A stretch of 64,000 bases of DNA from an uncultured Gammaproteobacteria bacterium (GTDB taxonomy: Bacteria; Patescibacteriota; Microgenomatia; Levybacterales; GWA1-39-11). The notes beneath the pieces were generated by a model. That model was not told where the DNA came from and did not search any database. It was given only the letters and a program-made list of their open reading frames with translations. Numbering within the stretch: position 1 is the first letter of the stretch; each line of letters opens with the position of its first letter. Both the position numbers and the translations under genes were made by a program. Shown piece after piece: positions 12,374 through 54,606 of the stretch. The stretch spans positions 90,923 through 154,922 of the forward strand of contig CAZVGS010000002.1 in assembly GCA_964627245.1 (NCBI GenBank), given 5' to 3'.

Positions 12374-12376
12374 ATA

Positions 12377-13687: not shown

Positions 13688-13738
13688 TCAAAGTGTGTCA
13701 AAACAGATATACCTTTGAGGCTGGTTGTGAAAAGAAGA

Positions 13739-15811: not shown

Positions 15812-15812
15812 A

Positions 15813-16157: not shown

Positions 16158-16161
16158 CTAA

Positions 16162-16458: not shown

Positions 16459-16463
16459 AAAAT

Positions 16464-16874: not shown

Positions 16875-16918
16875 AGATAATTAATTGTTAACAGGTTTGT
16901 TATTCCTTGTCAAGCATT

Positions 16919-17260: not shown

Positions 17261-17262
17261 AA

Positions 17263-17688: not shown

Positions 17689-17725
17689 ATATATATGGTA
17701 CTTTTAATAACGCTCCAATTCAACA

Positions 17726-25247: not shown

Positions 25248-25697
25248 ATGCATTGTCCATATTGTCATTCAAACAACACGGAGGTATCAGAAACAAGAGT
25301 AGGTGAGGACGGAAGCAACATAAGACGCCGACGTCTTTGCTCTGACTGCAAAAAGAGGTTCACGACCTATGAGAGGATCGAGAACATAATGCTTTTAGTT
25401 AAGAAAAAAGATAACAGGTCTGAAAGATTTTCGAGGGACAAGCTGCGGGGAGGGATACTCAAGTCGGTCGAAAAAACGACGGTAACAATTGACCAGGTAA
25501 ATAATATAGTTGATGAGGTTGAGCGGGAAATTTTAGGACGTGATAGTGTTGAAGTTGAGAGTAAGACCATCGGCAGACTGGTTGCAACAAGGCTTAAGAA
25601 ATTGGACAAAATTGCATATATAAGATTTGCCAGCGTATTTCAACATTTTGTTGATATAGAAGATTTTGAAAGAGAAGTGAAAAAGTTATTAAAATAG
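25248..25697 (+). CDS. nrdR: transcriptional repressor NrdR
   Basis: 149 aa; N-terminal zinc ribbon CPYC...CSDC followed by ATP-cone; directly upstream of nrdJ. Confidence 0.9.
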   Translation: MHCPYCHSNNTEVSETRVGEDGSNIRRRRLCSDCKKRFTTYERIENIMLLVKKKDNRSERFSRDKLRGGILKSVEKTTVTIDQVNNIVDEVEREILGRDSVEVESKTIGRLVATRLKKLDKIAYIRFASVFQHFVDIEDFEREVKKLLK

Positions 25698-25704
25698 ACA
25701 AAGC

Positions 25705-28086: not shown

Positions 28087-28314
28087 CGTAGCATAGAGCA
28101 AGAGCAAGCTCGCTTACAGTTGTGGGCACGCAGAGTGCTAAAATTAGTGGTTAGTTACTAGTTATTGGTGAATAGTTGGTAAGTAATTATTAAGTAGATT
28201 AAACAGTTATTTAGGTAAGTAGGGTGATCTAGACATAGAAATTCCCTCTCAGTGCCGCTACCGTAAAGACGGAAAACTAATTACTTTTATTGCTCGAGCA
28301 AGCTTATTTTTTGT

Positions 28315-28343
28315 AACCTTCTCGAGTTAGAGAAGGTTTTTTT
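28315..28343 (+). terminator. strong hairpin plus U-tract that ends nrdJ transcription and sequesters the Shine-Dalgarno of the downstream adenosyltransferase gene
   Basis: perfect 9-bp stem aaccttctc / gagaaggtt (28315-28323 with 28330-28338), 6-nt loop, then ttttt directly before ATG 28344; the 3' arm contains the only SD-like gaagg; a weaker hairpin plus T-run lies at 28290-28312. Confidence 0.55.
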
Positions 28344-28895
28344 ATGTCAATTTATACAAAAAAAGGAGACAAGGGAAAAACGTCTTTAGGAAGCGGTGTA
28401 AAAAAGTGGAAAGATGATGTGCGCGTAGATACATACGGTACGGTTGATGAGTTAAATTCTTTACTTGGTGTTGTTTCTTCAGAGCTTAACGCTAAAAAGG
28501 CACCCGGCAGATACTTAAATAATATAATCCTAAAAATCCAGGACGACCTTTTTTCTATCGGATCCTATTTATCAAATCCTGCAAATTCTAAGCTAATTTC
28601 TCATCTATCTAATAACACTTTAGAGTTTGAAAAAGAAATTGACGGGATGACAAAAATTCTCCCTGAATTATCCAATTTTATCTTACCTGGCGGTGGAAAA
28701 GCGGGAGCACTCTTGCAGTTTGCCAGAGCAGTATCAAGAAGGTGTGAGAGAAAACTAGTCACGCTTTCCAAAGAAGAAAAAATAAATGAAGATGTCTTGC
28801 AGTATATCAACAGACTCTCAGATCTTTTTTTCACCATGAGCAGATACGCAAATTTTAAGGAAAATATAAAAGAAACAATTTGGAAAAGAAGATAA
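28344..28895 (+). CDS. PduO-type ATP:cob(I)alamin adenosyltransferase
   Basis: 183 aa; N-terminus MSIYTKKGDKGKTSL matches the PduO/MMAB family start (MxIYTKTGDKGxTSL); functionally coherent with B12-dependent NrdJ. Confidence 0.75.
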   Translation: MSIYTKKGDKGKTSLGSGVKKWKDDVRVDTYGTVDELNSLLGVVSSELNAKKAPGRYLNNIILKIQDDLFSIGSYLSNPANSKLISHLSNNTLEFEKEIDGMTKILPELSNFILPGGGKAGALLQFARAVSRRCERKLVTLSKEEKINEDVLQYINRLSDLFFTMSRYANFKENIKETIWKRR

Positions 28896-36930: not shown

Positions 36931-37002
36931 GGGCATGTAGCTCAGGGGTAGAGCGCTACTCTTATAAAGTAGATGTCCTTGGTTCAATTCCAAGCATGCC
37001 CA
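36931..37002 (+). tRNA. tRNA-Ile (anticodon UAU)
   Basis: cloverleaf: acceptor GGGCATG/CATGCCC, D-arm GCTC-AGGGGTA-GAGC, anticodon stem CTACT/AGTAG with loop CTTATAA (anticodon TAT), T-arm CTTGG-TTCAATT-CCAAG, discriminator A; no encoded CCA. Confidence 0.7.
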
Positions 37003-37023
37003 CTCATTATAGCTTTTTCCCCT

Positions 37024-39462
37024 CTACAAATTGCCGCCTACTCCGCCGTCTTTCCCAGGTAATTTATCTTGCGGATTTACCTTATCCAAAACCTCAAAGA
37101 GCCTGGATCTTTTTGCGATTTCCTGATCTACAATGTCTCTCTGTCTTCCGTATTTGAGTCTTGAGAGTTCGCGTATCAATTCTGCAACACGCGGATTTTG
37201 AAGCTTTTTATCTTCTTCAATATTTCTCGTCAAATCCAGTGAGAAAGGAGTTGTGGGATCACCGCCGACTAAAGTTTTGACATAAGCGTGATATCTTTCA
37301 ACATTGATAAGATCCCCTTCGTTGAATGTCGGCTGAAATTCGTGCTGCAGATATCCGGCGTCGGTAACCCCTACCCTAAAAGAACAAATAGTTCCGACAT
37401 TTCCAAAAATAGCGTTTTTAACGTCTTCATCAATTTGCCCAATAAATTGATTTGCTACGGTTAAATTGAGTCTGTATTTCCTTGCCTCGGAAAGTATCTG
37501 TGCAAAATCGGGAGTCGCAAAATTCTGGAACTCATCAACATATAGGAAAAAGTCCTTTCTCTGGTCTTGGGGCATATCTTGCCTTGACATAGCGGCAACC
37601 AACAATTTAGGCACGAGTATAAGTCCAAGAAAGCTGGAATTTTCCTCACCGATCCGGCCTTTGTTAAGAGAAATCAAAAGAATTTTTTGATCGTCCATAA
37701 CTTGCCTGAAATTAAATGCACTTTCTGACTGTCCTATTATATTTCTCATCATTTTATTAGTGACAAATCTTCCGAATTTACTGACTATATAATCCAAAGT
37801 TTCTGACTTATGAAAGTCTGACGTCTGTGCTATCTGATCCGTCCAGTAGCGTCTCACCATTGGGTCATCAACTTTTGGCAGCAACTCCTGAACAAAAGAC
37901 ATATCGGTAAGCGCTCTTACAACCTCAACAAATGTATTACCCTTTTCAGACATAACTGTCAGCATTGCATTTCTAACCGAATGTTCAAAGCGAGGCCCGA
38001 TGATACCTGTTTTTTGAGGATCGTAGAGCTTATACATAAGGTTAATAATTGATGAAGTAACAAAGTGTTTTTGATCTTCAGTGTCCGCTTCAAGCATGTT
38101 AAGCCCCATCGGCCGCTCTGTATCCGACGGGTCAAATAGAATTACATCTTCTGCTCTTTGAGGCGGAATTAGTGTCAATATGTCATCAATCAAATCACCA
38201 TGAGGATCAATAACAGCAACGCCTTGGCCGGATCTTATATCCTGCATTATCATATCTTTCAAAAATTCGGATTTTCCAACTCCAGTTTTACCGATGATAT
38301 ACATATGCCTGCGTCTATCATCATCGCCTATGAATACTGATTTTTCCTGACCACGGAACAGACTTTTCCCAATGTATAATCCTTCCGTTGGAATGTTAGC
38401 CGGTGCAGGCGCGGTGCGTGCTGCAAGCCAATTTATATAAGGACTTTCAACGCTTTTATTGGGAAAGTGAAAAATAGTGGCTAATTCTTCCGTTGTCAGA
38501 ACCGTTCCCTTTGTAAAAAGAGGCAAGTGGCGGTAAATAAAATCTACCATAAGCATGCTTTTGAAAAACTTCGGTTCTTCCTTAGTAAATGAATTGTAGG
38601 GTGAAGAAAATTGAGTAAATGAATTTTCAATATTTGAAAGATGGGCATCTGCCGCTTCTTTAGAAGACGAGCTTACAACAACTCTTATGTGGGTCGTAAA
38701 ACCAGGTTTTGAAATTTTCTGCTCTATTGCTTCCAATTCTTTAGGGTCAGTTGAATATTTGGCAGTTTCTGGATTTGATTCCGTTTTTTTACTCTCTGTA
38801 ATATGTGCGCGACCGGCCTTTTTCCATTGATCTCCTGCGTTTGCTATTACAATTTGCAAAGCTGCCGCTTCTCCTTCCTGCATTTTTCCAAGAGTTGATG
38901 TCAGAGTTGATAAGGGATCCAGGGCAAAATCCTTATAGGTTTTTATAGGTTTGAAGCTCTCTTTTTTGAGTGTTAATCCTGCAAATGAAACTTTGCCTTC
39001 ATTTTCAAAGATATTATAGTCGTCAACTTCCTTTATTTGTGCGTCAGGATAAGCGCCGTTGATTTGCTTCTCAACCATATCCTGAAGCTTTTTTGGTACT
39101 CCGACATAAAATCTTATATCCTGCGGTTTTGCAACCACTTCAAAAGTAATGCTGTCCCCAACTTTTGTAAAGGAAAGCATTCCACTAACTGATTTTAATG
39201 ATGCAAAGCTTGAAAACAACTGCTCGGCGGCGTCAATTTTTATTTCGTTGTCCCGGGGAAGAGCTACTTCAAGAAGTGTACTGTCTAGTGATTTTTTGTG
39301 TCTTTTTTTTGCCCTACTCCAAATTCCATAAAAATAAATTGCGCCTATCGTTATTGCAGCAACAAAGCTCAAAAGCAAAATACTTGAAAGAAAGGTTAGC
39401 GCTGTATTTAGTAAAAAAGATGTATCAAACATGATATCCCTCCGAAAAGACTTTCCCTCCAA
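37024..39462 (-). CDS. virD4: type IV secretion coupling protein (VirD4/TraG/TcpA-like T4CP)
   Basis: 812 aa; N-terminal TM helix; Walker A IIGKTGVGKSEF; Walker B FLYVDEFQNFA; overall T4CP/FtsK-like layout; lies 22 nt downstream of tRNA-Ile. Confidence 0.8.
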   Translation of the reverse strand: MEGKSFRRDIMFDTSFLLNTALTFLSSILLLSFVAAITIGAIYFYGIWSRAKKRHKKSLDSTLLEVALPRDNEIKIDAAEQLFSSFASLKSVSGMLSFTKVGDSITFEVVAKPQDIRFYVGVPKKLQDMVEKQINGAYPDAQIKEVDDYNIFENEGKVSFAGLTLKKESFKPIKTYKDFALDPLSTLTSTLGKMQEGEAAALQIVIANAGDQWKKAGRAHITESKKTESNPETAKYSTDPKELEAIEQKISKPGFTTHIRVVVSSSSKEAADAHLSNIENSFTQFSSPYNSFTKEEPKFFKSMLMVDFIYRHLPLFTKGTVLTTEELATIFHFPNKSVESPYINWLAARTAPAPANIPTEGLYIGKSLFRGQEKSVFIGDDDRRRHMYIIGKTGVGKSEFLKDMIMQDIRSGQGVAVIDPHGDLIDDILTLIPPQRAEDVILFDPSDTERPMGLNMLEADTEDQKHFVTSSIINLMYKLYDPQKTGIIGPRFEHSVRNAMLTVMSEKGNTFVEVVRALTDMSFVQELLPKVDDPMVRRYWTDQIAQTSDFHKSETLDYIVSKFGRFVTNKMMRNIIGQSESAFNFRQVMDDQKILLISLNKGRIGEENSSFLGLILVPKLLVAAMSRQDMPQDQRKDFFLYVDEFQNFATPDFAQILSEARKYRLNLTVANQFIGQIDEDVKNAIFGNVGTICSFRVGVTDAGYLQHEFQPTFNEGDLINVERYHAYVKTLVGGDPTTPFSLDLTRNIEEDKKLQNPRVAELIRELSRLKYGRQRDIVDQEIAKRSRLFEVLDKVNPQDKLPGKDGGVGGNL

Positions 39463-40861: not shown

Positions 40862-42277
40862 ATGCTTTATGACAAATTAGCAATTCTTGATGTAGAAACA
40901 ACCGGCGCTGTTCCCCCTTATGACAGGATAATCGAAATTGGAATAATAAGAATTGAAAAAGGAGAGATTGTAAAAAAGTTTGAAACTCTTCTCAATCCCG
41001 AAGTAACAATTTCCCCATTCATAGAAAATTTGACAGGAATTGTAAATTCGGATCTAAAAAGTGCGCCTGTATTTTCGGAAATAAAAAGTGATCTGGCGGA
41101 ACTTTTGGAGGGATGTACTTTTGTTGCGCACAATGCCAGGTTTGATTATTCATTCATTAAAAATGAGTATAAAAGGATCGGCATTTTATACAGTGCAAAG
41201 CAATTATGCAGTGTAAAAATGTCACGGCTATTATTTCCGAATTTTTCCCATCACAATTTAGACAGCATTATTGAAAGATTTGAAATAGAATGCAAAAGAC
41301 GGCACCGCGCATTGGACGATGCGTTAGTTGTTTGGGAATTTTTGAAGAAATTAGAAAAATCTATAAATGAGGAAAAATTAAAAAAAGTTTTTGACACAAT
41401 ACTAAAAAAGCCTTCACTCCCTTACCTTCTAAAACATAAAGATGTAAATTTGCTTCCTGAAAAGCCGGGGGTTTATTTATTTTTTGGAAAAAGTGAAATA
41501 CCCTTATATATAGGAAAGAGCGTAAATATAAGGGATAGGGTGCTTTCGCATTTTATTAATGATACGGATTCATCAACCGAGTTGGAAATTTCTCAGCAAG
41601 TGGAAAGGATAGAAACATTTGTTACAGGAGGTGAATTAAGTGCATTGTTACTCGAATCAGAGTTAGTCAAGAAAATGCAGCCTATATATAATAGGAAGCT
41701 TAGATATGCTAGAAAATTAGTTACGCTTCGAAAAAAAGAACGGAAGGATGGATACTACAGCTTGAGTATTTCAAATGGGGAGGAAATAAAAAGTGATGAC
41801 ATAGAAAGCATATTAGGAATATTTAAGAGTGTAAAATCAGCTAAAGAACACTTGTCGCGGATGGTCAATGAAAATTTCTTATGTCAAAAAATGCTAGGAC
41901 TGCAAAATGGTAAAGGGCCTTGTTTCTCTTACCACTTGGAAGTTTGCCGGGGTGCGTGTGTCAATAAAGAAAAACCTGAGATGTTCAACGCCAGATTTGT
42001 TATGGCATTTTCCTCAACAAAATTAAAAGCATGGCCATTTAACGGACCGATATTGATTAATGAGAAAAGTGAAGACATAGAAGAAGCTCTGGTGTTTGAT
42101 AAATGGTGCTATTTAGGAAAATACAGTGAATACAATTCATCTCAAGAAGCATTGGCAATTTCGGATTTTGATGTTTACAAAATTTTGGCGAGCTTCTTAA
42201 AAGACCCAAAGAATTTGAAGAAAGTTACTACTATTTCACAACAGAGTATTTCAAAAGAAGAGTTCCTTTACCATTAA
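40862..42277 (+). CDS. DnaQ-like 3'-5' exonuclease fused to GIY-YIG nuclease domain (Cho/UvrC-homolog-like)
   Basis: 471 aa; N-terminal exonuclease motif I LAILDVETTG and downstream H-x4-D region; central GIY-YIG motif PGVYLFFGKSEIPLYIGKSVNIRDR. Confidence 0.7.
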   Translation: MLYDKLAILDVETTGAVPPYDRIIEIGIIRIEKGEIVKKFETLLNPEVTISPFIENLTGIVNSDLKSAPVFSEIKSDLAELLEGCTFVAHNARFDYSFIKNEYKRIGILYSAKQLCSVKMSRLLFPNFSHHNLDSIIERFEIECKRRHRALDDALVVWEFLKKLEKSINEEKLKKVFDTILKKPSLPYLLKHKDVNLLPEKPGVYLFFGKSEIPLYIGKSVNIRDRVLSHFINDTDSSTELEISQQVERIETFVTGGELSALLLESELVKKMQPIYNRKLRYARKLVTLRKKERKDGYYSLSISNGEEIKSDDIESILGIFKSVKSAKEHLSRMVNENFLCQKMLGLQNGKGPCFSYHLEVCRGACVNKEKPEMFNARFVMAFSSTKLKAWPFNGPILINEKSEDIEEALVFDKWCYLGKYSEYNSSQEALAISDFDVYKILASFLKDPKNLKKVTTISQQSISKEEFLYH

Positions 42278-42767
42278 GTTTGTCCACAGATAAAAGTTTT
42301 AGACTTACATCAATTTCTTCTTCTCCAACTATTCCGTTTCCAAGACCGAGAATTTTTGGCTCTAAAGTCTGCCAAACATCCGTTATAAGTTTTTCCCTAA
42401 AAAAGCCGGTTGCCGTGTGTGCACCTCCTACAAAAAGCGCTTCTTTATAACCCACTTTTTTTAGACGGCGGACAAGTGTCTTAACCGGTTCATTTGTGAA
42501 TTCCAACTGGCCATCGATTTTTTCTTTGTTATATTTATTTGGAGTTCTGGTAATTACAATTCTTAATTTTCCTTTTTTGTGAACCATTTGATTTTTTGCG
42601 CCTTCGTAAGTCGTCGAGCCCATTATGATAAGAGATGCTTCATCTCTTTTCTTTGTAAATATTTCAGCGTCTTCATCAGACCGCCATTCATGATGACTCT
42701 CAAGTCCTGTACTTTTTTGTGTCGTCCTCCCATCCAAAGATGTAACAATCATATAAATAATTTTCAT
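42231..42767 (-). CDS. RibD C-terminal domain / dihydrofolate reductase-like family protein
   Basis: 178 aa; MKIIYMIVTSLDGRTT... and overall pattern of the bacterial bifunctional deaminase-reductase C-terminal family. Confidence 0.55.
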   Translation of the reverse strand: MKIIYMIVTSLDGRTTQKSTGLESHHEWRSDEDAEIFTKKRDEASLIIMGSTTYEGAKNQMVHKKGKLRIVITRTPNKYNKEKIDGQLEFTNEPVKTLVRRLKKVGYKEALFVGGAHTATGFFREKLITDVWQTLEPKILGLGNGIVGEEEIDVSLKLLSVDKLNGKGTLLLKYSVVK

Positions 42768-46065: not shown

Positions 46066-46890
46066 ATGGAGAAATTGTTTGTTGTTAAAAGGTCCGGGGA
46101 GAGGGAGGAATATAGCGAGGAAAAAGTAAGACGCTCAATGAATAGGGTTGGAGTTCCTGATAACCTCAAGCCTGAAGTACTGCAGCATATTAGGCAAAAG
46201 TTTGAGAATAGTGAAATGAGTACGGATGATGTTTTTCATCACATCATGGAGTTCTTAGAGCCCCGTGACAGGAAATCATCTTTGCGTCTTAACTTACGTG
46301 AAGCCATATTTGATTTGGGTCCGACCGGTTTTCCATTCGAGCAGTATCTTTCAAAAATTTTTGAAAGTATGGGATACAAGGTTGAAACGAATGTTAATTT
46401 GGAGGGAGATTGTGTAAGACACGAAATTGATATTTTACTTGAAAAAGACGGGCACAGGGAAATAGTTGAAGTTAAATTTCACAATCATCACGTCGTCAAA
46501 ACAGATGTTCAGGTCGCTTTGTATACCTACGCGCGGTTTTTGGATGTTAAGGAGAAGAATAATATTTCAAATGTTTGGCTTATTACGAATACAAAGCTGA
46601 CTGAAGATGCGATAACCTACACAAAATGTAAAGGAATTCCGGCAATTGCATGGAATTATCCTGAAAAAGGAAATTTGCAGGATTTGGTTGAAGAGCCTGC
46701 GATGTATCCCATAACTCTTTTGACCTCTCTATCAGAACAAGAGAAAAAAAGACTTATTGAAAAAGATGTCGTTTTGTGTACAGACCTTCTTACTAAGAGC
46801 GACGTTGATTTGGCTGATCCTTTGCTTAGAAATGACAGTTTACAAAAAGCGCGTGATGATGCAAAATTAGTGTGCCCCTTGCCCCAATAG
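46066..46890 (+). CDS. ATP-cone domain fused to Mrr-like restriction endonuclease domain
   Basis: 274 aa; N-terminal ATP-cone (MEKLFVVKRSGEREEYSEEKVRRSMNRVGV); C-terminal PD-(D/E)xK-like core (HEIDILLEKDGHREIVEVKFHNHH...). Confidence 0.5.
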   Translation: MEKLFVVKRSGEREEYSEEKVRRSMNRVGVPDNLKPEVLQHIRQKFENSEMSTDDVFHHIMEFLEPRDRKSSLRLNLREAIFDLGPTGFPFEQYLSKIFESMGYKVETNVNLEGDCVRHEIDILLEKDGHREIVEVKFHNHHVVKTDVQVALYTYARFLDVKEKNNISNVWLITNTKLTEDAITYTKCKGIPAIAWNYPEKGNLQDLVEEPAMYPITLLTSLSEQEKKRLIEKDVVLCTDLLTKSDVDLADPLLRNDSLQKARDDAKLVCPLPQ

Positions 46891-46895
46891 TAATA

Positions 46896-47954
46896 ATGGC
46901 AAAAATCATAACTCTACCCGGTCTTATAGATGTTCATACCCACCTGCGTACACCCGGGCAAAGTCACAAAGAAGACTTTTATACAGGGACACTCGCTTCA
47001 CTAAATGGTGGTTTTACGACTGTTATTGACATGCCGAATAATGCGGTACCTATTACCACAAAAAGACTTTTAGATGAAAAGATAAGAATTGCAAAAACTC
47101 AAGCAGTCTCAGATATCGGTTTTCACTTTGGATCTTTAGGTGACAATCTCGATGAATTTAAGAAAGTTAATGGTAAAGTCATGGGGTTGAAGCTGTATCT
47201 TAATATGACTACGGGAGGATTTATCATTGGCAAAAAAGAGTTAAATGCAATATACAAATCCTGGGAGTCAAAACAGCCAATTTTACTACATGCGGAAGAG
47301 GATGTTTTGGATATGGTTTTTGAGATAGTGAAGCGTACAAAAAAAGCAACTCATATTTGTCACGTTTCATCGGAAGAAGAACTAACAAAAATTGCAAAAG
47401 CAAAAGAAAAGGGACTTCCTGTTACTTGCGGAATAACTCCTCACCATTTATTTTTGACAAAAGAGGATGGAAAAAAACTTGGGGCATACGGAAAAATGAA
47501 ACCTTACCTTAAAGGGAAAAAAGATCAAAGGTTTATATGGGAGAATTTACAGTACGTAGATATTATTGAGTCTGATCACGCACCGCATACCGTGAAAGAA
47601 AAAGATACGGAGGAACCATTTGGTGTTCCGGGTCTTGATACCACTCTACCCCTTTTGTTGTCTGCGTCAGAAGAAGGCAAACTAACTTTGGATGAAATAA
47701 TTCAGCTTTGTCATACCAATCCTGCAAGAATATTCAATGTCCCAACTGCCAAAAACACCTTAGTTGATGTTGAGATGAAAGAATATATACTTTCAAAAAA
47801 AGACTTAAAAACAAAATGCGCCTGGTCACCCTTTGAAGGAAGAAAAGTTATTGGAAAAGTCAGAAGCGTCACAATCCGCGGAAAAGAAATTTACAAAAAC
47901 GGAAAATTAGCTGTAAAGAAAGGCAGTGGAAAAGTAATCTCCCCAAGCATATAA
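46896..47954 (+). CDS. dihydroorotase-like cyclic amidohydrolase (PyrC family)
   Basis: metal-binding DVHTHLRTPG motif, later HAE... and D-H motifs; the ORF runs from 46872, but MAKIITLPG at 46896 avoids overlap. Confidence 0.6.
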   Translation: MAKIITLPGLIDVHTHLRTPGQSHKEDFYTGTLASLNGGFTTVIDMPNNAVPITTKRLLDEKIRIAKTQAVSDIGFHFGSLGDNLDEFKKVNGKVMGLKLYLNMTTGGFIIGKKELNAIYKSWESKQPILLHAEEDVLDMVFEIVKRTKKATHICHVSSEEELTKIAKAKEKGLPVTCGITPHHLFLTKEDGKKLGAYGKMKPYLKGKKDQRFIWENLQYVDIIESDHAPHTVKEKDTEEPFGVPGLDTTLPLLLSASEEGKLTLDEIIQLCHTNPARIFNVPTAKNTLVDVEMKEYILSKKDLKTKCAWSPFEGRKVIGKVRSVTIRGKEIYKNGKLAVKKGSGKVISPSI

Positions 47955-47961
47955 TCATGGC

Positions 47962-48438
47962 ATGAGCCATAAGGTTGAATCGCCCAATTCTTACGAGGTT
48001 TTGTCTCCTGCAGAAAAGAATGGAATGTTAAAGACAGCGCTTTTAAGTTTGCCAAGACAATTAACATTGGGAGAGCCACAACTGGTTGAAAATCTCAAAT
48101 TCATTAATCACCTTTCTGAATTACTCGAATTTTCCCGCGGTACGAAAGGATCAACAAGATTTATTTTGGACAACGCTGCCTATGCAACAGAGTTTGGCGT
48201 GGAGGCAGTTGCTCCGAAGCCTGAAAGGTTTGATCCTGAAAAGTCGTTTCCCACAGTACTCTTTAATCCGCTTGATCCTGAAGGTCTTTTTGGAGATAAC
48301 CCCCAGTTAACCGAACAAAGAGGATTGATTTACCTTTCGAAGAATAGGGAAGCCTCCAGGTACAATTCACGAGAGCACAAACTATATGCAGTTTGGTGGG
48401 CTGAATATGTTACTGCCTACCACCATGACCCGTTTTAG
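47962..48438 (+). CDS. hypothetical protein
   Basis: 158 aa, no motif recognised. Confidence 0.3.
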   Translation: MSHKVESPNSYEVLSPAEKNGMLKTALLSLPRQLTLGEPQLVENLKFINHLSELLEFSRGTKGSTRFILDNAAYATEFGVEAVAPKPERFDPEKSFPTVLFNPLDPEGLFGDNPQLTEQRGLIYLSKNREASRYNSREHKLYAVWWAEYVTAYHHDPF

Positions 48439-48447
48439 GCAACTAGA

Positions 48448-49563
48448 TCATGCCGGTTTGTTTTGTTGGGATTTAATTTCAATGGCAAGGCTTGGGTTCC
48501 ACATTGCACCGGTTGCAGACATAACAGCATCTGCACCTGCTTCGCGATATTCAAAATAATCCTCAGGAGTTGTCACTCCTCCAACACCTGTAATGCTAAA
48601 TTGATAATTTTTTTTGTCTTTAATTTTCTTAAGTTTCTTTACAAAATCAAGACCTGCCCATTTTATTCCTGCACCGCAAAGACCACTTCTAGTTCTGTTT
48701 GGCCCCGGTAGAGCTTGCTTACCATTTGCATCCACAACTGTCGCCTGCAAAGTGTTAATGCCTGAAATATCATCGGCATATTCGTTTGCGATTTCTGCTA
48801 ACTTTTCAAGTTCCTTAGTGTTTTTATAATAACCAACTTTAACTGAAAAAGGAGTATTTCCGATTACACTTCTTATTTTTTCACAAACTTTTTTTGTAAC
48901 ATCCAAGTTGTAACAAACCAACCCCTCATTGCCAATATTTGGACAGGAGAGATTAGTCTCCAATACCTTTGCTCCGGTTTCATATGCTAACCTTGCTGCA
49001 AGAACATAGTCATCGATAAATTGTTTTTGCGTTTGGTCTTTCTTTACAGTCCCCATAAAACTTAACACCATAACTTGTCCATTGCCTTCGTAAGAAATAG
49101 CTTTTTTTACATCTTCCTGCCAAACCTCAGGATTTTTGGAAGGTACTCCGAAGGAATTCGTAATGGTAATCGGATCCTTAAATACCCCGTCAACAACAAT
49201 TGGTTGATCGAGTTTTTCCAAAGTTAGATTTCCACCCTTTTTAACTGCCAAAAGATTTGGAAAGGGATGACAGGGGTAGGCCGTTGCTCTGACTGTTTTA
49301 TACACACAAATATCAAAACCGTTCTCAAAAGCTCCTTTGATAAACTTGCTATTCAAAAGAGGTCCTGCAGGAATACCAAAAGGCAGGTTAACTTTTAGAC
49401 CAAGATAATCATACTTAAGAGTTTTTTCCTTCGCCAATTTCTTTGGATTTGCAAAATCTCCAAAAGGACCCTTATTGTAGTTATCTTCGTAGCTTAAGTG
49501 CGGATCATAAAAGGGGACTTTAATCATTGGTCTAAGATTAGCAGATCGCAAAATATGAGTCAA
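48448..49563 (-). CDS. dihydroorotate dehydrogenase-family flavoprotein (PyrD-like)
   Basis: 371 aa; C-terminal FMN-binding TIM-barrel signature ...ITGVGGVTTPEDYFEYREAGADAVMSATGAMWNP. Confidence 0.6.
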   Translation of the reverse strand: MTHILRSANLRPMIKVPFYDPHLSYEDNYNKGPFGDFANPKKLAKEKTLKYDYLGLKVNLPFGIPAGPLLNSKFIKGAFENGFDICVYKTVRATAYPCHPFPNLLAVKKGGNLTLEKLDQPIVVDGVFKDPITITNSFGVPSKNPEVWQEDVKKAISYEGNGQVMVLSFMGTVKKDQTQKQFIDDYVLAARLAYETGAKVLETNLSCPNIGNEGLVCYNLDVTKKVCEKIRSVIGNTPFSVKVGYYKNTKELEKLAEIANEYADDISGINTLQATVVDANGKQALPGPNRTRSGLCGAGIKWAGLDFVKKLKKIKDKKNYQFSITGVGGVTTPEDYFEYREAGADAVMSATGAMWNPSLAIEIKSQQNKPA

Positions 49564-49566
49564 TTG

Positions 49567-50289
49567 TCATCGGATGTAAAGTCCTCCATTAACATCGATA
49601 GTTGAGCCGGTAATATAAGAGGCGTCTTCAGAGAGAAGAAAAAATACTGCACCGGCTACATCGTTAACATTTCCTGCTCTCTTAACAAGACTATTTTCTA
49701 TGTTCTTTTGCCTATCTTTGGTTTTCATTCTTCTGGACATTCTCGTATCAATCATCCCAGGAGCAACTGCATTTACCAGTATATTATACTTACTAAGGCT
49801 TCTTGCAAGAGATTTTGTTAACCCGATTTGGCCTGCTTTTGAAGCTGAATAAGCAGGATCGCGACTACCCAAATGTGCTCCTGTTGATGAAATATTTACT
49901 ATTCTTCCTCCATAGTGTTTCATAAACGGCAAAGCATACTTTATGCATCGAAAAGTCGCACTGAGATTAATTTCAATAACTAAATCCCACAAGTCATCAG
50001 TATATTTTTCGAAAGAAACAATGGGATAAACACCTGCATTATTTATCAAAACATCTATTCTTTTTTGTTCTTTTTTTAATCCTTCAAAAAAAGATTTAAC
50101 TTCATTCTTATTTAAGAAATCTATCTCAAAAGTCCTCACTTTTGAGCCTAAATTTTCTAATGTTTTTATGTTTGTTTTGCTGATTTTATGTTTGCTAAGA
50201 AGTATGAGGTGCCACCCATCCTCAGAAAGCCGTTTAGCAATTGAAAATCCAATATCACCATGGGCTCCTGTAATTAATGCTGTTTTCAT
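49567..50289 (-). CDS. short-chain dehydrogenase/reductase (FabG-like)
   Basis: 240 aa; TGAHGDIGFSIA Rossmann motif, YSASKAG catalytic motif. Confidence 0.7.
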   Translation of the reverse strand: MKTALITGAHGDIGFSIAKRLSEDGWHLILLSKHKISKTNIKTLENLGSKVRTFEIDFLNKNEVKSFFEGLKKEQKRIDVLINNAGVYPIVSFEKYTDDLWDLVIEINLSATFRCIKYALPFMKHYGGRIVNISSTGAHLGSRDPAYSASKAGQIGLTKSLARSLSKYNILVNAVAPGMIDTRMSRRMKTKDRQKNIENSLVKRAGNVNDVAGAVFFLLSEDASYITGSTIDVNGGLYIR

Positions 50290-51152
50290 CTTAAAACTAT
50301 ACCGTATGATTGCATCTTCTTAATTGCCTCATCTATGTCTTGTTGGGAAATAATTACACCATTTCTCTTAATCGCGTGTGAAGCAAGAATTGTTCCTATT
50401 TCTGCACACTGTTCCGGAGGTAATTTTCTAATAAAAGCTAGAATAAATCCGAGAGAAAATGCATCGCCAGCACCTGTTGTATCGGTAAGTTCCCGTTTTT
50501 GGGTTGGCACAAATACCTCCTGGTTTTGACCGTCTCTATAGTGAACTGTTGCTCCACGCGGCCCAAGCGTAGTGACTACTACTTTGGGTCCATAATCGAG
50601 GACTTCATTTTGATCTGAAACATTGAGAATGCTTTTTGCCCTTTGCCATTCTGATTCATTAAGAAATAATATTTGAGATCGTCTTAGGACATCAAGATGC
50701 AGATATTCATCAGCCTTCAATAGCTTTGGCCCAGGAGTGTATGTTAGTAATCCCTCTCTTTTCCTTGCAACATTTTTAGCCAACCCGTGGTGCGCGCTTG
50801 CCAGATGTACCACTTTGTATGGTTCTATTTCGTCTCCTGAAACCACAACATGAGGACTCAGTTCTGCGACTCCATTATCATGCCATTCACCGATTTGATT
50901 AAGTTCGGCTATCTCGTTTATAGGTATTGATATACCAGGACGCCGAGGAGAAAGTGTTATATCTACACCTATTTCACTGAGAAGGTTAGTGTATCTGACG
51001 CTTATTTCGTCAGTCCCAAACAAAGCTAGCAACCCCGTATCGACACCAAAGACTTTTCCGTTGATTGCTATACCTGCTGCAGCTCCCCCAAAATAATCAT
51101 TTCCTTCAATTTTATCAATGGCAGCATATCCTACAGAGAGTAGCTCCGGCAT
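50286..51152 (-). CDS. PfkB-family carbohydrate/nucleoside kinase (ribokinase-like)
   Basis: 288 aa; C-terminal DTTGAGDAFSLGF motif. Confidence 0.65.
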   Translation of the reverse strand: MPELLSVGYAAIDKIEGNDYFGGAAAGIAINGKVFGVDTGLLALFGTDEISVRYTNLLSEIGVDITLSPRRPGISIPINEIAELNQIGEWHDNGVAELSPHVVVSGDEIEPYKVVHLASAHHGLAKNVARKREGLLTYTPGPKLLKADEYLHLDVLRRSQILFLNESEWQRAKSILNVSDQNEVLDYGPKVVVTTLGPRGATVHYRDGQNQEVFVPTQKRELTDTTGAGDAFSLGFILAFIRKLPPEQCAEIGTILASHAIKRNGVIISQQDIDEAIKKMQSYGIVLR

Positions 51153-51156
51153 ATTG

Positions 51157-51807
51157 TTAAGTAAAATTCAATAAATCTATAAAATTAGGGATTGTATGCG
51201 TAAAACCAGCTTTTTCTATCTTTTTACCATCGATCCCATAAAGAACTCCTATTGAGTCAACTCCAGCATTTGAAGCAGAAAGTGAATCAACGCTAGTATC
51301 TCCTACCATCACTATTTCATCGAGTGGAATTTTTGTTTTTCGGGCGATATAAAGGATACATCCCTTGTTTGGTTTATCTCCTCCTGGCATTCCACCACCA
51401 TAAACGACTTCGAATAAGCTATCTACTTTAAGGGACTTAAGTATTCGATTAATCGAGGACGCTTTCTTAGTAGTTAGAATAGCAAGCTTTCTATCCAACC
51501 CAATCAATTTCTTGAGGGTTTCCTCTACGCCTGGAAAAAAGATGAGTTCTTTGATAGCACTTTCTAGTAAGTAAGATCTAAAATCCTCGGTGAGTTTCTC
51601 AATTTCTTGTTTTGAAAGATCTGGTTTTAAAAGTGAAAAAGCTTCTCCAATAGATACCTTACCTATCGTTGGATAAATCAATAAAGGATCTACCTCTTCG
51701 TATCGATTTTTAACTAATGCGTAATTTACACTTTTTGATATATGTTGGCGTGAATCAACTAACGTCCCGTCAAAATCAAAGATAAAAAGCTTATATCTAC
51801 GCATCAT
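51157..51807 (-). CDS. HAD-superfamily phosphatase
   Basis: 216 aa; motif I FIFDFDGTLVDS, motif IV VGDTSVD. Confidence 0.65.
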   Translation of the reverse strand: MMRRYKLFIFDFDGTLVDSRQHISKSVNYALVKNRYEEVDPLLIYPTIGKVSIGEAFSLLKPDLSKQEIEKLTEDFRSYLLESAIKELIFFPGVEETLKKLIGLDRKLAILTTKKASSINRILKSLKVDSLFEVVYGGGMPGGDKPNKGCILYIARKTKIPLDEIVMVGDTSVDSLSASNAGVDSIGVLYGIDGKKIEKAGFTHTIPNFIDLLNFT

Positions 51808-52657
51808 TTTTTCGCATTGTAAATTTATCTTCGGGTATTACGTGGCCAAGATTGACAGCCTTTGAACGGAGGTCGCTGGCTATTATTTCATTGGCAGGCT
51901 CTATATGGATAGAGACAGGAGTTACTCTAATGCCTGCTGACTCAATTCCTTTTATCTTGCGTGGATTATTTGTTAGTAGTCTAACCGACTTTACTCCAAT
52001 ATGATGCAACATATCTCCTGCGATAGTAAAGTCACGTACCTCTGATGGGTATCCCGCCTTTTTGTATGCTTTATCAGTATCAACACGTTCCCCAGTTTCT
52101 GGATCTATCTTTTGAGATATCTTTCCATTTCTCCACTCAAACATCCCATTTAATTGAGCCATTTTTCCTGAAACGCCTGTGCCTCTTCCTTCCTGTTCGA
52201 GATACATTATTATTCCACTCCCTTCATCGCGCACTTGATTCATTGCCTCACGAAATTCATCTTTGCATTCACAATTTATTGCTCCATACACCTCACTTGT
52301 TCTACAGGAAGAATGAATTCTAACCAAAATATCTTCACCGTTTCCCAAGGCATTTTCAACGATGTTTCCAAAAACTAGCATTTCATGATGAGAACCGTTT
52401 GTGTAGTCTCCAAAAACAAGGTACGTCCAATCACCAAACTCGGTAGGTAAAGGTGAGCGTCCGATCTCTTCAACTAGAGGTTTTTGTTCAGTTCTTAGTA
52501 TTTTTTGCATTTCGGTTTCATTTTCCCAGGGCTTTTTCCAAATAAATTTTCTCAAATTGACTATTTGATTGACAGAGAGCTCATGCGGATCATAATGTCC
52601 AGACAAGCCTCCAATAAATTCTTGCCCTTGATCTAAGCGTATTTCAGCTGATTTCAT
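51797..52657 (-). CDS. GTP cyclohydrolase II (RibA)-family protein
   Basis: 286 aa; zinc-site pattern VRIHSSCRTSEVYGAINCECKDE (compare RibA HSECLTGD..CDCG) and EGRGTGVSGKMAQL. Confidence 0.55.
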   Translation of the reverse strand: MKSAEIRLDQGQEFIGGLSGHYDPHELSVNQIVNLRKFIWKKPWENETEMQKILRTEQKPLVEEIGRSPLPTEFGDWTYLVFGDYTNGSHHEMLVFGNIVENALGNGEDILVRIHSSCRTSEVYGAINCECKDEFREAMNQVRDEGSGIIMYLEQEGRGTGVSGKMAQLNGMFEWRNGKISQKIDPETGERVDTDKAYKKAGYPSEVRDFTIAGDMLHHIGVKSVRLLTNNPRKIKGIESAGIRVTPVSIHIEPANEIIASDLRSKAVNLGHVIPEDKFTMRKNDA

Positions 52658-52725
52658 CGAATTATAGCTTATTCAATTTTCCGTATCAACTAGCTAAGTT
52701 TTATTACATTTGAGTTCACGATTCA

Positions 52726-53817
52726 ATGACAATATTGTCAATATATAAAAATGGTGATAGACTCCAGAAAATGTTTGAAAATTACTCCTTCGCTGACTTA
52801 TTTAGGAAATATAAGGTAAAGGCTGGATTGAAGACATTGTCACATCTTGGTGAGGAATTTGAAAAACAGGGGTTGTTGTTTGAAAATAGCATCTTCTCAC
52901 ACTGGCAACGTGGTTCAAGAATTCCCACGAATAGAAATACTCTTCTTGCTCTGATAAGAATATTTATTAAGCGAAAAGCAATAAAAACCATTACAGAAAT
53001 TAACATATTTCTTGAATCAAGCGGGCATGGATATCTCACAAGAACAGAAGCGGGTGCGTTGTTCTCAAGCATTAAAAGGTATCGACGTGAAGGATTCATT
53101 GGTAGACCTGGTATACCTCTGGTCAATAAAACATCTCATCGACTAGGGAGGACTGCAGAAGAAATATTCATAGAAAATAATTTGGCAATTTTTAATTTCG
53201 ATACACCTTTTACATATACAACCGGATTAAAGAGTCCGATGTTCGTTGATAACAGACTACTTCTTTCTTTGACCAAAGAGCGAGACTTTATTATTAATGA
53301 AATGGTAAAGTTTATTAAAAGAAATGTACCTATTGGTGAAATAGATTATGTGTCATCTTCATTCTCATTTGCTGCGCCATTTGGTGTACTGGTTGCGGCT
53401 GCACTAAAACTTCCCCTCATCTTAATAAGAGAAAGTAAATCTTCGTACGGACGATTTACGAAGATTGAGGGACATCTACCATATGGAAAAAGAGTACTAA
53501 TAGTAGAAGATCTTATCTCAACAGGGGTCGCAGTAATTGATAATTGTGAAACCGTACGTTTGGCGGGAGGAAAGACTAAATATTGTGTTTCTCTTGTTGA
53601 CTACGAAATAAAACTTGTACGAAAAAGTATGGCTGCTCACAATCTGAAAGTCTTTGCACTAACTAGTGGTAAGAGAATTCTCATAGAGGCAGAGAAGAAA
53701 GGAGTGTTAACAAAAGATGAAAAAAAGGAGGTAACAGACTGGTTAGAAGCACCTTTTAAGTGGGGTAAGATAAGGGGATGTTACAAGAACGGAAGCGCGA
53801 CAGATTATTATAAATAG
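52726..53817 (+). CDS. protein with unknown N-terminal domain and C-terminal type-I phosphoribosyltransferase (orotate PRTase-like) domain
   Basis: 363 aa; C-terminal GLKSPMFVDNRLLLS and PRPP-binding VLIVEDLISTGVAV motifs resemble PyrE. Confidence 0.55.
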   Translation: MTILSIYKNGDRLQKMFENYSFADLFRKYKVKAGLKTLSHLGEEFEKQGLLFENSIFSHWQRGSRIPTNRNTLLALIRIFIKRKAIKTITEINIFLESSGHGYLTRTEAGALFSSIKRYRREGFIGRPGIPLVNKTSHRLGRTAEEIFIENNLAIFNFDTPFTYTTGLKSPMFVDNRLLLSLTKERDFIINEMVKFIKRNVPIGEIDYVSSSFSFAAPFGVLVAAALKLPLILIRESKSSYGRFTKIEGHLPYGKRVLIVEDLISTGVAVIDNCETVRLAGGKTKYCVSLVDYEIKLVRKSMAAHNLKVFALTSGKRILIEAEKKGVLTKDEKKEVTDWLEAPFKWGKIRGCYKNGSATDYYK

Positions 53818-53824
53818 TTGGTGT

Positions 53825-54307
53825 TTGACGTGTTTCAAAAAGCTTTGGTATAGTTGTTATATGCGATTTCTCAAAATAATTTTTGGCATTCTTCCTATAC
53901 GCTACGCTAGTGCGCACTGTGATGTTCCTTGCGGGATTTATGACCCTAAAGCTATGCAGATTGCTGCTGCAACTGTTCTTGTAATGGTTCAAAAGATTAA
54001 CTCTTTAGAAAAACCTGAAAAAGAAGATAAAAAAGAATGGCTAAATTATAAAAATGGTCTTACTCGAATGATTTGGACAAAAGAGGAGCATGCGAGGAAA
54101 TGCAAGGAAGAACTTTTAATACTTTGGACCGATTATTTTAAGCCTGAACATTTGGAAAAATTCCCTGATTTACACAATACTTTTTGGAGAGCAGCCAAGC
54201 TTTGCTCACAAAATAAGCAAGAAATTTCCGAAGATACTGCTCAAGCTTTAGTTGATGCCACTTCCAGCATTGCTGATATCTTCCAAAAAACAAAAGCTAA
54301 TCCGTGA
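53825..54307 (+). CDS. sodN: nickel-containing superoxide dismutase precursor (SodN)
   Basis: mature N-terminus HCDVPCGIYDP matches the Ni-hook motif HCDLPCGVYDP; leader ...ILPIRYASA precedes it (probable start Met 53861); helical 4-helix-bundle-sized remainder. Confidence 0.8.
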   Translation: MTCFKKLWYSCYMRFLKIIFGILPIRYASAHCDVPCGIYDPKAMQIAAATVLVMVQKINSLEKPEKEDKKEWLNYKNGLTRMIWTKEEHARKCKEELLILWTDYFKPEHLEKFPDLHNTFWRAAKLCSQNKQEISEDTAQALVDATSSIADIFQKTKANP

Positions 54308-54606
54308 ACCTCCTCCGCAATTTTCCAGTAAAAAGATTCCGTATAAAAAATAAAAGCATGAGTCCAGTTCTTAAAGAAAAATCTGAGGTTATTACTTTCC
54401 CATATTTATTCTTCCAGCCAAAAATAGGAGATATTATTGTTTTTAACAATATTGTTCCGCCATTTATTTTCTGTAAAAAGATTACTAAAATTATTGGGGA
54501 TAGGATATGGGTTGAAGGAGTCAATAGAAAAGTAAGTATTGATAGTAGAAATTTTGGGTTTATCGATAAAAAAAATATTATTGGAAAAGTAATAATTAAA
54601 TTCTAA
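54304..54606 (+). CDS. sodX: signal-peptidase-I-like NiSOD maturation protease (SodX)
   Basis: 100 aa S24/S26-like fold (...IGDIIVFN...GDRIWVEGVNRKVSIDSRNFGFIDKKNIIGKVI) immediately downstream of sodN. Confidence 0.6.
   Translation: MNLLRNFPVKRFRIKNKSMSPVLKEKSEVITFPYLFFQPKIGDIIVFNNIVPPFIFCKKITKIIGDRIWVEGVNRKVSIDSRNFGFIDKKNIIGKVIIKF

Follow-up and report, generated by a model that had tools for sequence, protein, structure and literature searches.

A RibA-like protein with a predicted remodelled pocket, encoded in an exchanged block among late pyrimidine genes of a Patescibacteria-type genome

Introduction

Bacteria of the candidate phyla radiation (CPR, Patescibacteria) are thought to depend on their hosts for nucleotides, and how they process the nucleotides they scavenge is largely unknown. 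The locus analysed here, positions 46066–53817 of a 64-kb stretch of contig CAZVGS010000002.1 (the window), combines relatives of the pyrimidine enzymes PyrC, PyrD and PyrE with a RibA-like protein of the GTP cyclohydrolase II family, a PfkB kinase, a haloacid dehalogenase-type (HAD) phosphatase, a short-chain dehydrogenase/reductase (SDR) and a nuclease carrying an ATP-cone. An initial annotation suggested that these genes could form one salvage or modified-nucleotide pathway with the nuclease attached to it. Do they belong to one pathway, and what would a RibA relative do among pyrimidine genes? We find that the interval is composed of three transcription units and does not encode one pathway. 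Genes of late pyrimidine synthesis are combined in it with an inserted block of four enzymes that has recently been exchanged between species, and the RibA-like protein of this block is predicted to represent a CPR-specific subfamily of zinc cyclohydrolases with a remodelled pocket.

Results

Three transcription units and an inserted block

The main open reading frames (ORFs) of the window, down to a length of 100 aa, were profiled with Pfam and NCBIfam; the part from 55 to 63.6 kb was taken from the gene table. The interval holds nine ORFs (Table 1). All those named in the initial annotation were recovered in place, with every family call backed by Pfam or NCBIfam, and the ninth, a familyless orphan, had been missed. 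All enzymes of the cluster fall short of the NCBIfam equivalog cutoffs, so the cautious wording "PyrC-like" or "PyrD-like" is fair. The first unit runs on the plus strand from the nuclease gene through pyrC to the orphan. The second, on the minus strand, reads RibA-like, HAD, PfkB, SDR and pyrD, with overlaps of 4–11 nt or gaps of 3–4 nt between its five genes; the start of the HAD gene overlaps the stop of the RibA-like gene by 11 nt. The third unit, again on the plus strand, begins with the PyrE-like gene, which encodes a diverged phosphoribosyltransferase (PRT) fused to a putative helix-turn-helix (HTH) domain, and continues with the gene for a nickel superoxide dismutase (NiSOD); it diverges from the RibA-like gene over 68 bp. 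Absent from the cluster, as first reported, pyrB, pyrF and carAB are also missing from the profiled ORFs of the window, and the same profiles find no ribD deaminase, ribB, ribH or ribE domains there, but only a stand-alone RibD_C protein. A tblastn search of the window returns no gene for orotidine monophosphate (OMP) decarboxylase, and Rfam places no RNA element in the cluster.

A comparison of gene neighbourhoods, which the initial annotation had suggested, separates the parts of the locus (related contigs carry L numbers below). Gene order is exactly that of the window in a second species represented by two independent assemblies (L125 and L126), and partly kept in the more distant L091, in which RibA-like, HAD, PfkB, SDR and pyrD follow each other at 57–70% identity. 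The recurrence of this order, together with codon differences between species that are mostly synonymous in the diverged flanking genes, shows that the arrangement is not a product of chance. In a syntenic relative, known from the contig carrying P0243, the nuclease and the pyr genes are present, and the RibA-like, HAD, PfkB, SDR and orphan genes are missing. Its contig reads exonuclease, RibD_C, glycosyltransferase, ATP-cone/Mrr nuclease, pyrC, convergent pyrD, divergent HTH-PRT gene, NiSOD and peptidase, then three further genes and finally FemAB, UvrD, TIM, LytR and DUF2298. The RibA-like, HAD, PfkB and SDR genes are a block inserted between the fusion gene and pyrD, and they form one operon with pyrD.

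The block also has a history of its own. A tract from about 49.4 to 53.9 kb is 98.4–100% identical at the nucleotide level to L125/L126, compared to 61–79% (mostly 68–78%) in the flanks; a shoulder of intermediate identity (77–94%) lies at 47750–49500, over the orphan and pyrD. Differences inside the tract amount to 1–4 synonymous ones per gene, and in the flanking ATP-cone gene to 117 in 273 codons. Since synonymous sites are near-identical in the tract, this identity indicates recent exchange and not purifying selection. The block, together with the fusion gene, has recently been exchanged between species, and the 4.5-kb tract looks like a recent recombination event or a gene-specific sweep in a CPR population.

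These results bear directly on the idea that all nine genes, including those for PyrC, PyrD, the PyrE-like protein and the nuclease, serve one route that ends in a modified nucleotide or in a compound of the pterin type. Tight clustering, the conservation of the whole order in L125/L126 and the position of all enzymes under the equivalog cutoffs are what such a route would predict. The genes nevertheless fall into three transcription units of differing orientation, pyrC and the nuclease gene lie outside the exchange tract that holds the block, and the P0243 relative has the pyr genes and the nuclease and not the four-enzyme block. PyrD and PyrC moreover occur elsewhere in CPR with prs, pyrF and pyrE or as a bare pair, and PyrC is a near-textbook dihydroorotase by alignment. 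The single-pathway proposal is already largely refuted, and we consider it very improbable.

PyrC, PyrD and the ATP-cone nuclease

PyrC aligns over its full length with the dihydroorotase domain of human CAD (344 residues, 298 bits, E = 6.6e-88). The motifs DVHTHLRTPG, GLKLYLN, HAE, HICHV and SDHAPHT stand in register, and the ligands of the binuclear metal site (HxH, carboxylated Lys, His, Cys/His and Asp) as well as the substrate motifs HLRxPG and MPN, with the substrate-binding Arg and Asn, all align with CAD. Bacterial type I dihydroorotases score far below the CAD domain in the same comparison. TIGR00857 gives 256.2 against a cutoff of 279.05 and all other equivalog models also stay below their cutoffs; the CAD-type subclass seems poorly covered by NCBIfam models. 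Judged by these alignments, PyrC is a near-textbook CAD-type (type III-like) dihydroorotase. Mechanical ORF calling starts the gene at a GTG codon, and the gene callers of related contigs use an ATG downstream of it (352 aa).

PyrD is more diverged. It matches Pfam DHO_dh with 76 bits, its best equivalog score is 78.5 bits against a cutoff of 269, and its closest PDB matches, DHODA and DHODB of L. lactis, are distant (44 bits). It keeps the NLSCPN segment with the catalytic Cys, the lysine of VK(V/L), the asparagine of (I/V)N(T/S), here GINT, and the GGV loop that binds the phosphate of flavin mononucleotide (FMN). The ATG at 49527 (359 aa), as called on contig L001, is its likely start. Identity within the family is about 70% over many CPR sequences. 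PyrD comes last in the order prs-pyrF-pyrE-pyrD on a 1.08-Mb contig (L120), follows directly after a pyrC gene 58% identical to ours in L124, and adjoins a stand-alone copy of the diverged PRT in a Daviesbacteria contig (L121). We predict PyrD to be a CPR-specific class-1-like dihydroorotate dehydrogenase (DHODH). PyrC and PyrD together are, as shown by homology and context, the normal late de novo pyrimidine genes of this lineage. The initial annotation would have given way if its genes were simply scattered canonical ones; the arrangements in L120, L124 and L121 bring this close to true for PyrC, PyrD and the PyrE-like protein.

The nuclease gene, which lies directly upstream of pyrC, encodes an ATP-cone, an AF1548-type PD-(D/E)xK domain and a C-terminal AF1548-like_C domain. 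The ATP-cone scores 23.9 bits against a Pfam cutoff of 25.8 and is flagged as "faint" in relatives; Mrr_cat is matched with E = 1.6e-8. The C-terminal 160 aa match AF1548 (PDB 1Y88) with 128 bits (E = 3.5e-36), and the motif EID...EVK aligns to EID...ECK of AF1548, so that the PD-(D/E)xK core is kept. PADLOC returns weak PDDEXK/Cas4 matches for this protein and nothing more. The adjacency to pyrC recurs in L002, L126 and the P0243 relative, which region-wide synteny in these three related genomes explains equally well. Nothing links the nuclease to the chemistry; contrary to the initial suggestion that it is attached to the pathway, it is only a conserved neighbour of pyrC. The window encodes a second ATP-cone protein, NrdR, which combines a zinc ribbon with the ATP-cone and whose gene is followed by those of a class II-type ribonucleotide reductase with a TSCPD domain and a PduO-type cobalamin adenosyltransferase.

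A RibA paralogue with altered pocket residues

The RibA-like protein belongs clearly to the cyclohydrolase family (Pfam GTP_cyclohydro2, PF00925, 136.6 bits against a cutoff of 23.3; E = 3.5e-36 to E. coli RibA, PDB 2BZ0) and falls below both NCBIfam cutoffs for the canonical enzyme (TIGR00505, 126.7 against 205.85; NF001591, 131.6 against 148). More than 100 homologues of 54–72% identity are listed, and nearly all named ones come from CPR. A scan of species-representative genomes with the RibA-like alignment, using peptide patterns common to both groups, returned only canonical RibAs of 30–39% identity.

We aligned 20 members with 81 canonical enzymes, namely E. coli RibA and 80 RibAs of many phyla. 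In E. coli numbering, the RibA-like proteins keep R49, H51, S52, C54, T56, C65, C67, Y88, E92, G93, R94, K101, D113, T114, R128, TNNPxK, K186 and H192, which include residues of the zinc site, those contacting the triphosphate and ribose, and those of the covalent nucleotidyl step with Arg128 as nucleophile. In the numbering of the window protein, C118/C129/C131, R208, R113, E156, R158, K165 and TNNPxK are invariant in all 20. Equally invariant are the replacements S62A, D66E, Q70E, I96T, A104Q, Y105L, G111R, N118Y and Y182D, at positions that are 100% conserved in the 81 canonical enzymes, and Q108 is replaced as well, mostly by Thr. Tyr105 aligns to the invariant Leu169, and an insert of 17–18 residues follows this position; the N-terminus carries an extension with a W..PW motif. 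The active-site check proposed in the initial annotation thus gives a divided answer, with the Cys triad and the Arg in place and the catalytic Tyr lost. Tyr105 reportedly hydrogen-bonds the zinc-bound water (work ascribed to Ren et al., 2005), and a Streptomyces RibA paralogue with Met in place of this Tyr is said to stop at the formylated product (ascribed to Spoonamore and Bandarian, 2008).

We predict from this pattern that the RibA-like proteins are a CPR-specific subfamily of zinc cyclohydrolases with a remodelled pocket. With the base pocket and the catalytic Tyr replaced, substrate and/or product would differ from those of the step that converts GTP to 2,5-diamino-6-ribosylamino-4(3H)-pyrimidinone 5'-phosphate (DARPP), and the reaction probably does not belong to riboflavin synthesis. 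A literature search on GTP cyclohydrolase II in Patescibacteria/CPR, on CPR pyrimidine synthesis and on URC1, the cyclohydrolase homologue of the yeast uracil catabolism (URC) pathway, found nothing on the RibA-like family.

Partner enzymes of the block

The kinase matches Pfam PfkB with 96 bits. Its top NCBIfam models are a nucleoside kinase (Thermoplasmatales) and then ribose-1-phosphate kinases, and its best PDB match is MJ0406 (2C49, E = 1e-20; the next is at 7e-9), which we take to be an M. jannaschii nucleoside kinase accepting guanosine and inosine. The protein thus appears most like an archaeal broad-specificity nucleoside kinase. PfkB orthologues of 43–59% identity adjoin RibA-like genes in L091, L101, L105 and L117. 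The phosphatase is of the HAD-IA type (HAD_2, 123 bits), with the motifs DFDGT and GDTSVD in its translation; the nearest NCBIfam models are phosphoglycolate phosphatase and PpaX, all below cutoff, and its PDB matches are uncharacterised HAD phosphatases. The SDR (adh_short_C2, 193 bits) is FabG-like, carries TGxxxxIG, NNAG and S...YxxxK, lies below all NCBIfam equivalog cutoffs and is 99% identical to its counterparts in L125/L126. PADLOC finds no defence-family match among the block proteins.

The orphan is predicted to be all helical (AlphaFold2, AF2, pLDDT 86, pTM 0.83). It has no match in Pfam, NCBIfam or PADLOC, and none at E<1 to a PDB fold by Foldseek; nine relatives were found among 1.84 billion representatives. 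It is present in L125/L126 and L091 and absent from the P0243 relative, and so occurs only in genomes with the RibA-like block. The 154-aa protein encoded after pyrD in L124 was compared with it and is not homologous.

Neighbours of RibA-like genes in other genomes

A metagenome scan with a segment specific to the subfamily gave 27 loci, most of them short, and neighbours were counted in about 26 dereplicated loci. PfkB kinases occur in 11 of these, a small zinc beta-tent protein in 10, PyrF-type genes in 8, HAD proteins in 5, UMP-kinase-like genes in 4 and PyrD in 2; a guanylate kinase is found in one, after the RibA-like pair in L008. Pyrimidine-type neighbours outnumber guanine-type ones by about 14 to 1, which points to pyrimidine nucleotides. 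The PyrF-type genes pass TIGR02127 (pyrF_sub2) and form a distinct clade: all five complete sequences have DxKxxE-M-G in place of the canonical DxKxxD-I seen in L120, and LDT or LDS in place of LDP. The zinc protein, which the window lacks, has 102–120 aa (typically about 105) and two CxxC motifs, with weak matches to Yippee/Mis18 and to the RIG-I C-terminal domain. A RibA-like gene also occurs on three phage-like contigs, two of them in IMG/VR, where the usual partners are missing; on one of these contigs it adjoins a ThiF-like E1 gene. In another lineage (L101 and L105), where our block has HAD, PfkB and SDR, the RibA-like protein is followed by a 423-aa protein with no counterpart in Pfam, NCBIfam or the PDB, and then by a short HAD and a PfkB orthologue.

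No rib gene lies beside a RibA-like gene in any of these neighbourhoods, and the view of the initial annotation that this gene stands outside a riboflavin operon, in a non-canonical combination, therefore holds. The same data weigh on the possibility that the block supplies flavin, with the RibA-like protein, the HAD as a phosphatase of the aminoribitylaminopyrimidinedione phosphate (ARPP) type, the SDR as ribosyl reductase and RibD_C and other partners making riboflavin or an analogue for the FMN-dependent PyrD. Membership of the RibA family, a flavoprotein-family PyrD in the same operon, a RibD_C protein in the window and the general role of HAD phosphatases in the dephosphorylation step of riboflavin synthesis would fit this. 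Against it, ribB, ribH, ribE and the deaminase are missing from the 64 kb and from all of the about 26 neighbourhoods, the usual partner is PyrF-like and cofactor-free, phage-like contigs have the RibA-like gene alone, and the active site is remodelled. The RibD_C/DHFR-like protein, 3.3 kb from the cluster, was considered as a pathway member and rejected: it is syntenic in the P0243 relative without the block and never stands beside RibA-like genes in the other loci. We regard a flavin-supply role as improbable.

Table 1 Positions of the features described in the text. Window positions are given unless a contig is named.
Feature	Position	Strand	Remark
ATP-cone + Mrr_cat nuclease gene	46066–46890	+	Pfam, PDB match
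pyrC, dihydroorotase family	46872 (GTG) or 46896 (ATG) to 47954	+	profile and alignment
Orphan, 158 aa	47962–48438	+	ninth gene
pyrD, DHO_dh	48448–49563	-	last gene of the five-gene operon
SDR	49567–50289	-	accessory block
PfkB kinase	50286–51152	-	accessory block
HAD phosphatase	51157–51807	-	accessory block
RibA-like, GTP_cyclohydro2	51797–52657	-	first gene of the operon
Divergent intergenic region, 68 bp	52658–52725		promoter-like site
Promoter-like site	52689 to 52661	-	consensus match
HTH-PRT fusion (OPRTase-like domain, 140-aa N-terminal extension)	52726–53817	+	profile match
Palindrome	52727–52740		overlaps HTH-PRT start codon
Inter-species exchange tract	49400–53900		SDR, PfkB, HAD, RibA-like, HTH-PRT gene
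NiSOD, S26-type peptidase	53825–54606		
RibD_C/DHFR-like protein	42231–42767		
NrdR	25248–25697		
NrdR, ribonucleotide reductase, adenosyltransferase	25248–28895		
Type IV secretion-like cluster	9580–19057, 37024–39462		
tRNA-Ile	36931–37003		anticodon TAT (UAU)
Small zinc (beta-tent) protein, examples	L005 9540–9902, L090 8748–9077, L105 3293–3628, L114 9969–10277		Yippee/RIG-I-CTD-like; about 6 more loci
DxKxxE PyrF-type genes	L008 10819–11661, L090 10794–11672, L095 1076–1921, L097, L109		distinct clade
Phage-like contigs with RibA-like gene	L006/L007/L111/L123 (82-kb contig), L122 (59-kb contig), L112		PrimPol/DnaB, prohead protease, HNH, many glycosyltransferases
423-aa protein	L101 3212–4483, L105 4517–5788		

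The putative HTH-PRT fusion and the divergent promoter-like site

The protein encoded divergently from the block consists of a helical domain (aa 17–115) and a diverged orotate phosphoribosyltransferase (OPRTase) domain (aa 140–363). The latter scores below the cutoffs of NF001729 (137 against 245) and TIGR00336 (80.5 against 106.8), and its best PDB matches are Bacillus and Streptococcus OPRTases (E = 1e-26; 3e-26 for B. anthracis). It keeps the loop VEDLISTG, which binds phosphoribosyl pyrophosphate (PRPP), and FTxxTGxKSPxxxDNR. Its flexible loop reads RESKSSYGRFTK in place of the canonical RSKxKxHGxGN, so that the catalytic Lys..Lys-x-His-Gly is replaced, and AAPF stands for the GIPH segment; a small diverged subfamily shares both changes. 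The extra N-terminal domain noted in the initial annotation is present and homologous to the N-terminal part of NB-ARC/TPR regulators: it is 37% identical (E = 1e-22) to that of 737-aa proteins whose genes in L008, L009 and L104 likewise lie upstream of a RibA-like gene and diverge from it. The N-terminal domain of these NB-ARC/TPR proteins matches HTH_31 weakly (E = 0.003). The AF2 model of our domain is all helical, with a pLDDT of about 85 for the core (residues 20–110), and the closest Foldseek matches, the Phi106 repressor, EspR and lambda-repressor-like proteins, are non-significant (E>1). The fusion is rare, with three sequence clusters.

These observations suggest that the N-terminal part is probably an XRE-like DNA-binding domain. 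The fusion protein is probably a regulator with predicted DNA binding, and/or the PyrE of this lineage; in B. subtilis PurR, a PRT fold serves as PRPP sensor. The strongest promoter-like site in the cluster, called by consensus match only, lies in the intergenic region and reads TTGATA-17-TATAAT (11 of 12 consensus positions) on the strand of the block; L091 shares the arrangement TTGAkA...CGGAAA...TATAAT-yCG-ATG. A perfect palindrome, TGACAATATTGTCA, overlaps the start codon of the fusion gene. L091 has TGACATAACTGTCA at the equivalent position, and in L008 and L104 the RibA-like genes are preceded by GTCA-N7-TGAC. The palindrome could be an operator or a coincidence of the coding sequence.

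A tentative mechanism and its competitors

We consider it highly probable that the locus consists of a pyrimidine core, an inserted and exchanged block and a nuclease that is a mere neighbour. For the chemistry of the block we favour, tentatively and with low confidence, a ring-opening of a pyrimidine nucleotide after the logic of the yeast URC pathway, fed by PfkB and placed under the control of the fusion protein; composition and chemistry taken together as one explanation have about an even chance of being correct. URC combines a PRTase (URC6), a GTP cyclohydrolase II homologue (URC1) and an SDR (URC8) (PMC7530994). In the proposed scheme the PRT domain of the HTH-PRT protein would act as a sensor of orotate, PRPP or OMP, and the protein would control the divergent promoter in a PurR-like manner. 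PfkB would phosphorylate a scavenged nucleoside, and housekeeping kinases would take the product to the triphosphate. The RibA-like protein would bind this triphosphate through the conserved phosphate and ribose residues of RibA, expel pyrophosphate via Arg208 and open the base ring hydrolytically at the Cys118/129/131 zinc site. The HAD phosphatase would then remove the phosphate from the ring-opened ribotide, and the carbonyl fragment set free would be reduced by the SDR. A uridine- or orotidine-type nucleotide and URC-like logic are favoured because of the pyrimidine-gene neighbours in the about 26 loci.

Several points weigh against this scheme. The substrate of the RibA-like protein is suggested by its neighbours only, and it would be odd for a catabolic ring-opening enzyme to share an operon with the biosynthetic pyrD. 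Equivalents of URC4 and urea amidolyase were not found in the window or in the RibA-like loci examined. The RibA-like protein scores 128 bits to true RibA and far less to proteins of the URC1 type (28 bits to 7EJ3; NF005536, PRK07198, 31.6 bits against a cutoff of 403), and when the substitutions of URC1-like and CPR proteins at the pocket positions were compared, the pattern was not shared. Closer to true RibA and without the URC1-specific substitutions, it has GTP as a serious candidate substrate. In the control part, the HTH call rests on weak matches, for both HTH_31 and Foldseek, the stand-alone diverged PRT beside pyrD in L121 means that the fusion may simply be an active PyrE, and the predicted -10 box ends 3 nt before the ATG, which leaves the transcription start uncertain.

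A scheme built on GTP is nearly as likely. GTP cyclohydrolase II acts in two steps, ring cleavage and then deformylation (PMC9478397). A RibA-like protein without the Tyr could stop in between, at a formamidopyrimidine (FAPy) nucleotide, as GTP cyclohydrolase III (GCH III) does; PfkB would bring in guanosine, and HAD and SDR would process the product, either to ribose phosphate recycled for PRPP or to an aminopyrimidine metabolite. The closest solved relatives of the RibA-like protein are true GTP cyclohydrolases II, the residues for triphosphate, ribose, zinc and the Arg nucleophile are all kept, and the change of Tyr105 to an invariant Leu recalls the Streptomyces paralogue with Met that reportedly yields a formylated product. 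The presumed acceptance of guanosine and inosine by MJ0406 and the guanylate kinase in L008 point the same way. Loss of the Tyr is, however, accompanied by replacement of nine further fully conserved residues and by the insert, which argues for a different base pocket. The pyrimidine neighbours count against GTP too, as does the lack of a conserved formamidase, deaminase or reductase partner, RibD_C being present also in the relative without the block.

The block could also have no part in pyrimidine metabolism and lie beside pyrD by chance, acting for instance in sanitising the nucleotide pool or as a phage–host conflict module that destroys a particular nucleoside triphosphate. Its mobility between species, the presence of the RibA-like gene on phage-like contigs and the nearby NUDIX genes in L005 and at the P0243 locus would fit this, as would the hydrolysis of 8-oxo-GTP by E. 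coli RibA. Independent lineages, though, repeat the association with PyrF-type, UMP-kinase-like and PyrD genes, PADLOC detects no defence family in the block, and the regulators in the divergent position are of metabolite-sensor types. We find an unrelated function unlikely. A bolder proposal, which we hold to be equally doubtful, is that the RibA-like protein is a new nucleotide cyclohydrolase in a route, specific to CPR and CPR phages, that interconverts or remodels nucleotides, together with PfkB, the DxKxxE PyrF, the zinc protein and the UMP-kinase-like protein, and here with HAD and SDR. In its boldest version a scavenged purine nucleotide would be converted to a 6-substituted pyrimidine nucleotide and finished by the variant PyrF, which, if true, would give a purine-to-pyrimidine bypass to organisms without the early pyrimidine steps.

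Other features of the window

The remaining window resembles a Patescibacteria chromosome near the origin, with dnaA, dnaN, tmRNA (transfer-messenger RNA), SmpB, pilins like those of type IV secretion systems, and NrdR with the class II reductase. The source names of homologues include Candidatus Daviesbacteria and the Patescibacteria group, in line with the reduced-genome organism of the initial annotation. The secretion-like cluster encodes a TraG/VirB4-like ATPase, a PrgI-like protein, three pilins of the type IV secretion kind and a Trans_reg_C regulator, with a separate gene for a coupling-protein-like product. ARAGORN calls a tRNA-Ile with the anticodon UAU, which is uncommon in bacteria, where AUA is usually read by a lysidine-modified CAU tRNA. 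The NiSOD gene after the fusion gene is followed by that of a short S26-type peptidase, likely the NiSOD maturation protease; the pair is kept in L125 and at the P0243 locus.

Discussion

The late pyrimidine pathway is conserved in these organisms, and its enzymes are unusual: PyrC is of the CAD type and PyrD is deep-branching. Beside it stands a RibA paralogue that is widespread, strongly conserved, wired into pyrimidine-nucleotide neighbourhoods, carried by phage-like contigs and swapped between species as a unit, as would be expected of a trait that is currently selected; its operon may be under the control of a PRT-fold sensor-regulator. The current annotation, "GTP cyclohydrolase II", would mislead metabolic reconstructions into including a partial riboflavin pathway. 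Knowing what the RibA-like protein catalyses would correct this and could reveal a new step of nucleotide salvage.

Compared with known systems, PyrC matches the human CAD domain along its whole length, with all ligands present. PyrD has the Cys of NLSCPN, the Lys, the Asn and the GGV loop in common with the class 1 enzyme DHODA of L. lactis, but is very distant from all solved class 1 DHODHs, has about 50 extra N-terminal residues and no adjacent partner of the PyrK type. The C-terminus of the nuclease is homologous to AF1548 with D...ExK retained, the AF1548 domain being fused here to an ATP-cone; its N-terminus resembles the ATP-cone of NrdR, and unlike NrdR it has no zinc ribbon.

The RibA-like protein shares with E. 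coli RibA (2BZ0/2BZ1) the fold, the Cys3 zinc site, Arg128 and the phosphate and ribose contacts R49, E92, R94, K101 and TNNPxK. It differs in the change of Tyr105 to Leu, in nine more replaced invariants, in the insert and the extension, and in having no rib-gene neighbours. With the FAPy-forming GTP cyclohydrolases, the archaeal GCH III and the Streptomyces paralogue, it would share arrest at a formylated intermediate, as predicted for loss of the Tyr from an otherwise intact RibA site; the CPR family alters many more pocket residues, adds an insert and lacks a formamidase partner. Like yeast URC, the 4.5-kb tract brings together three protein types, PRT, RibA homologue and SDR, and ties the RibA homologue to pyrimidine and not to flavin metabolism. 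URC1-type proteins (7EJ3/7EEV), however, keep the Tyr that the RibA-like protein has lost, the PRT is here OPRTase-derived and fused to a DNA-binding-like domain, and HAD and PfkB are additional. The fusion protein would resemble PurR and PyrR in joining a PRT fold with a degenerate catalytic loop to a nucleic-acid-binding part, here a predicted one, and in being encoded beside nucleotide genes. Where PurR has a winged helix, the fusion would combine an OPRTase-derived and possibly still catalytic PRT with a predicted XRE/lambda-repressor-like domain.

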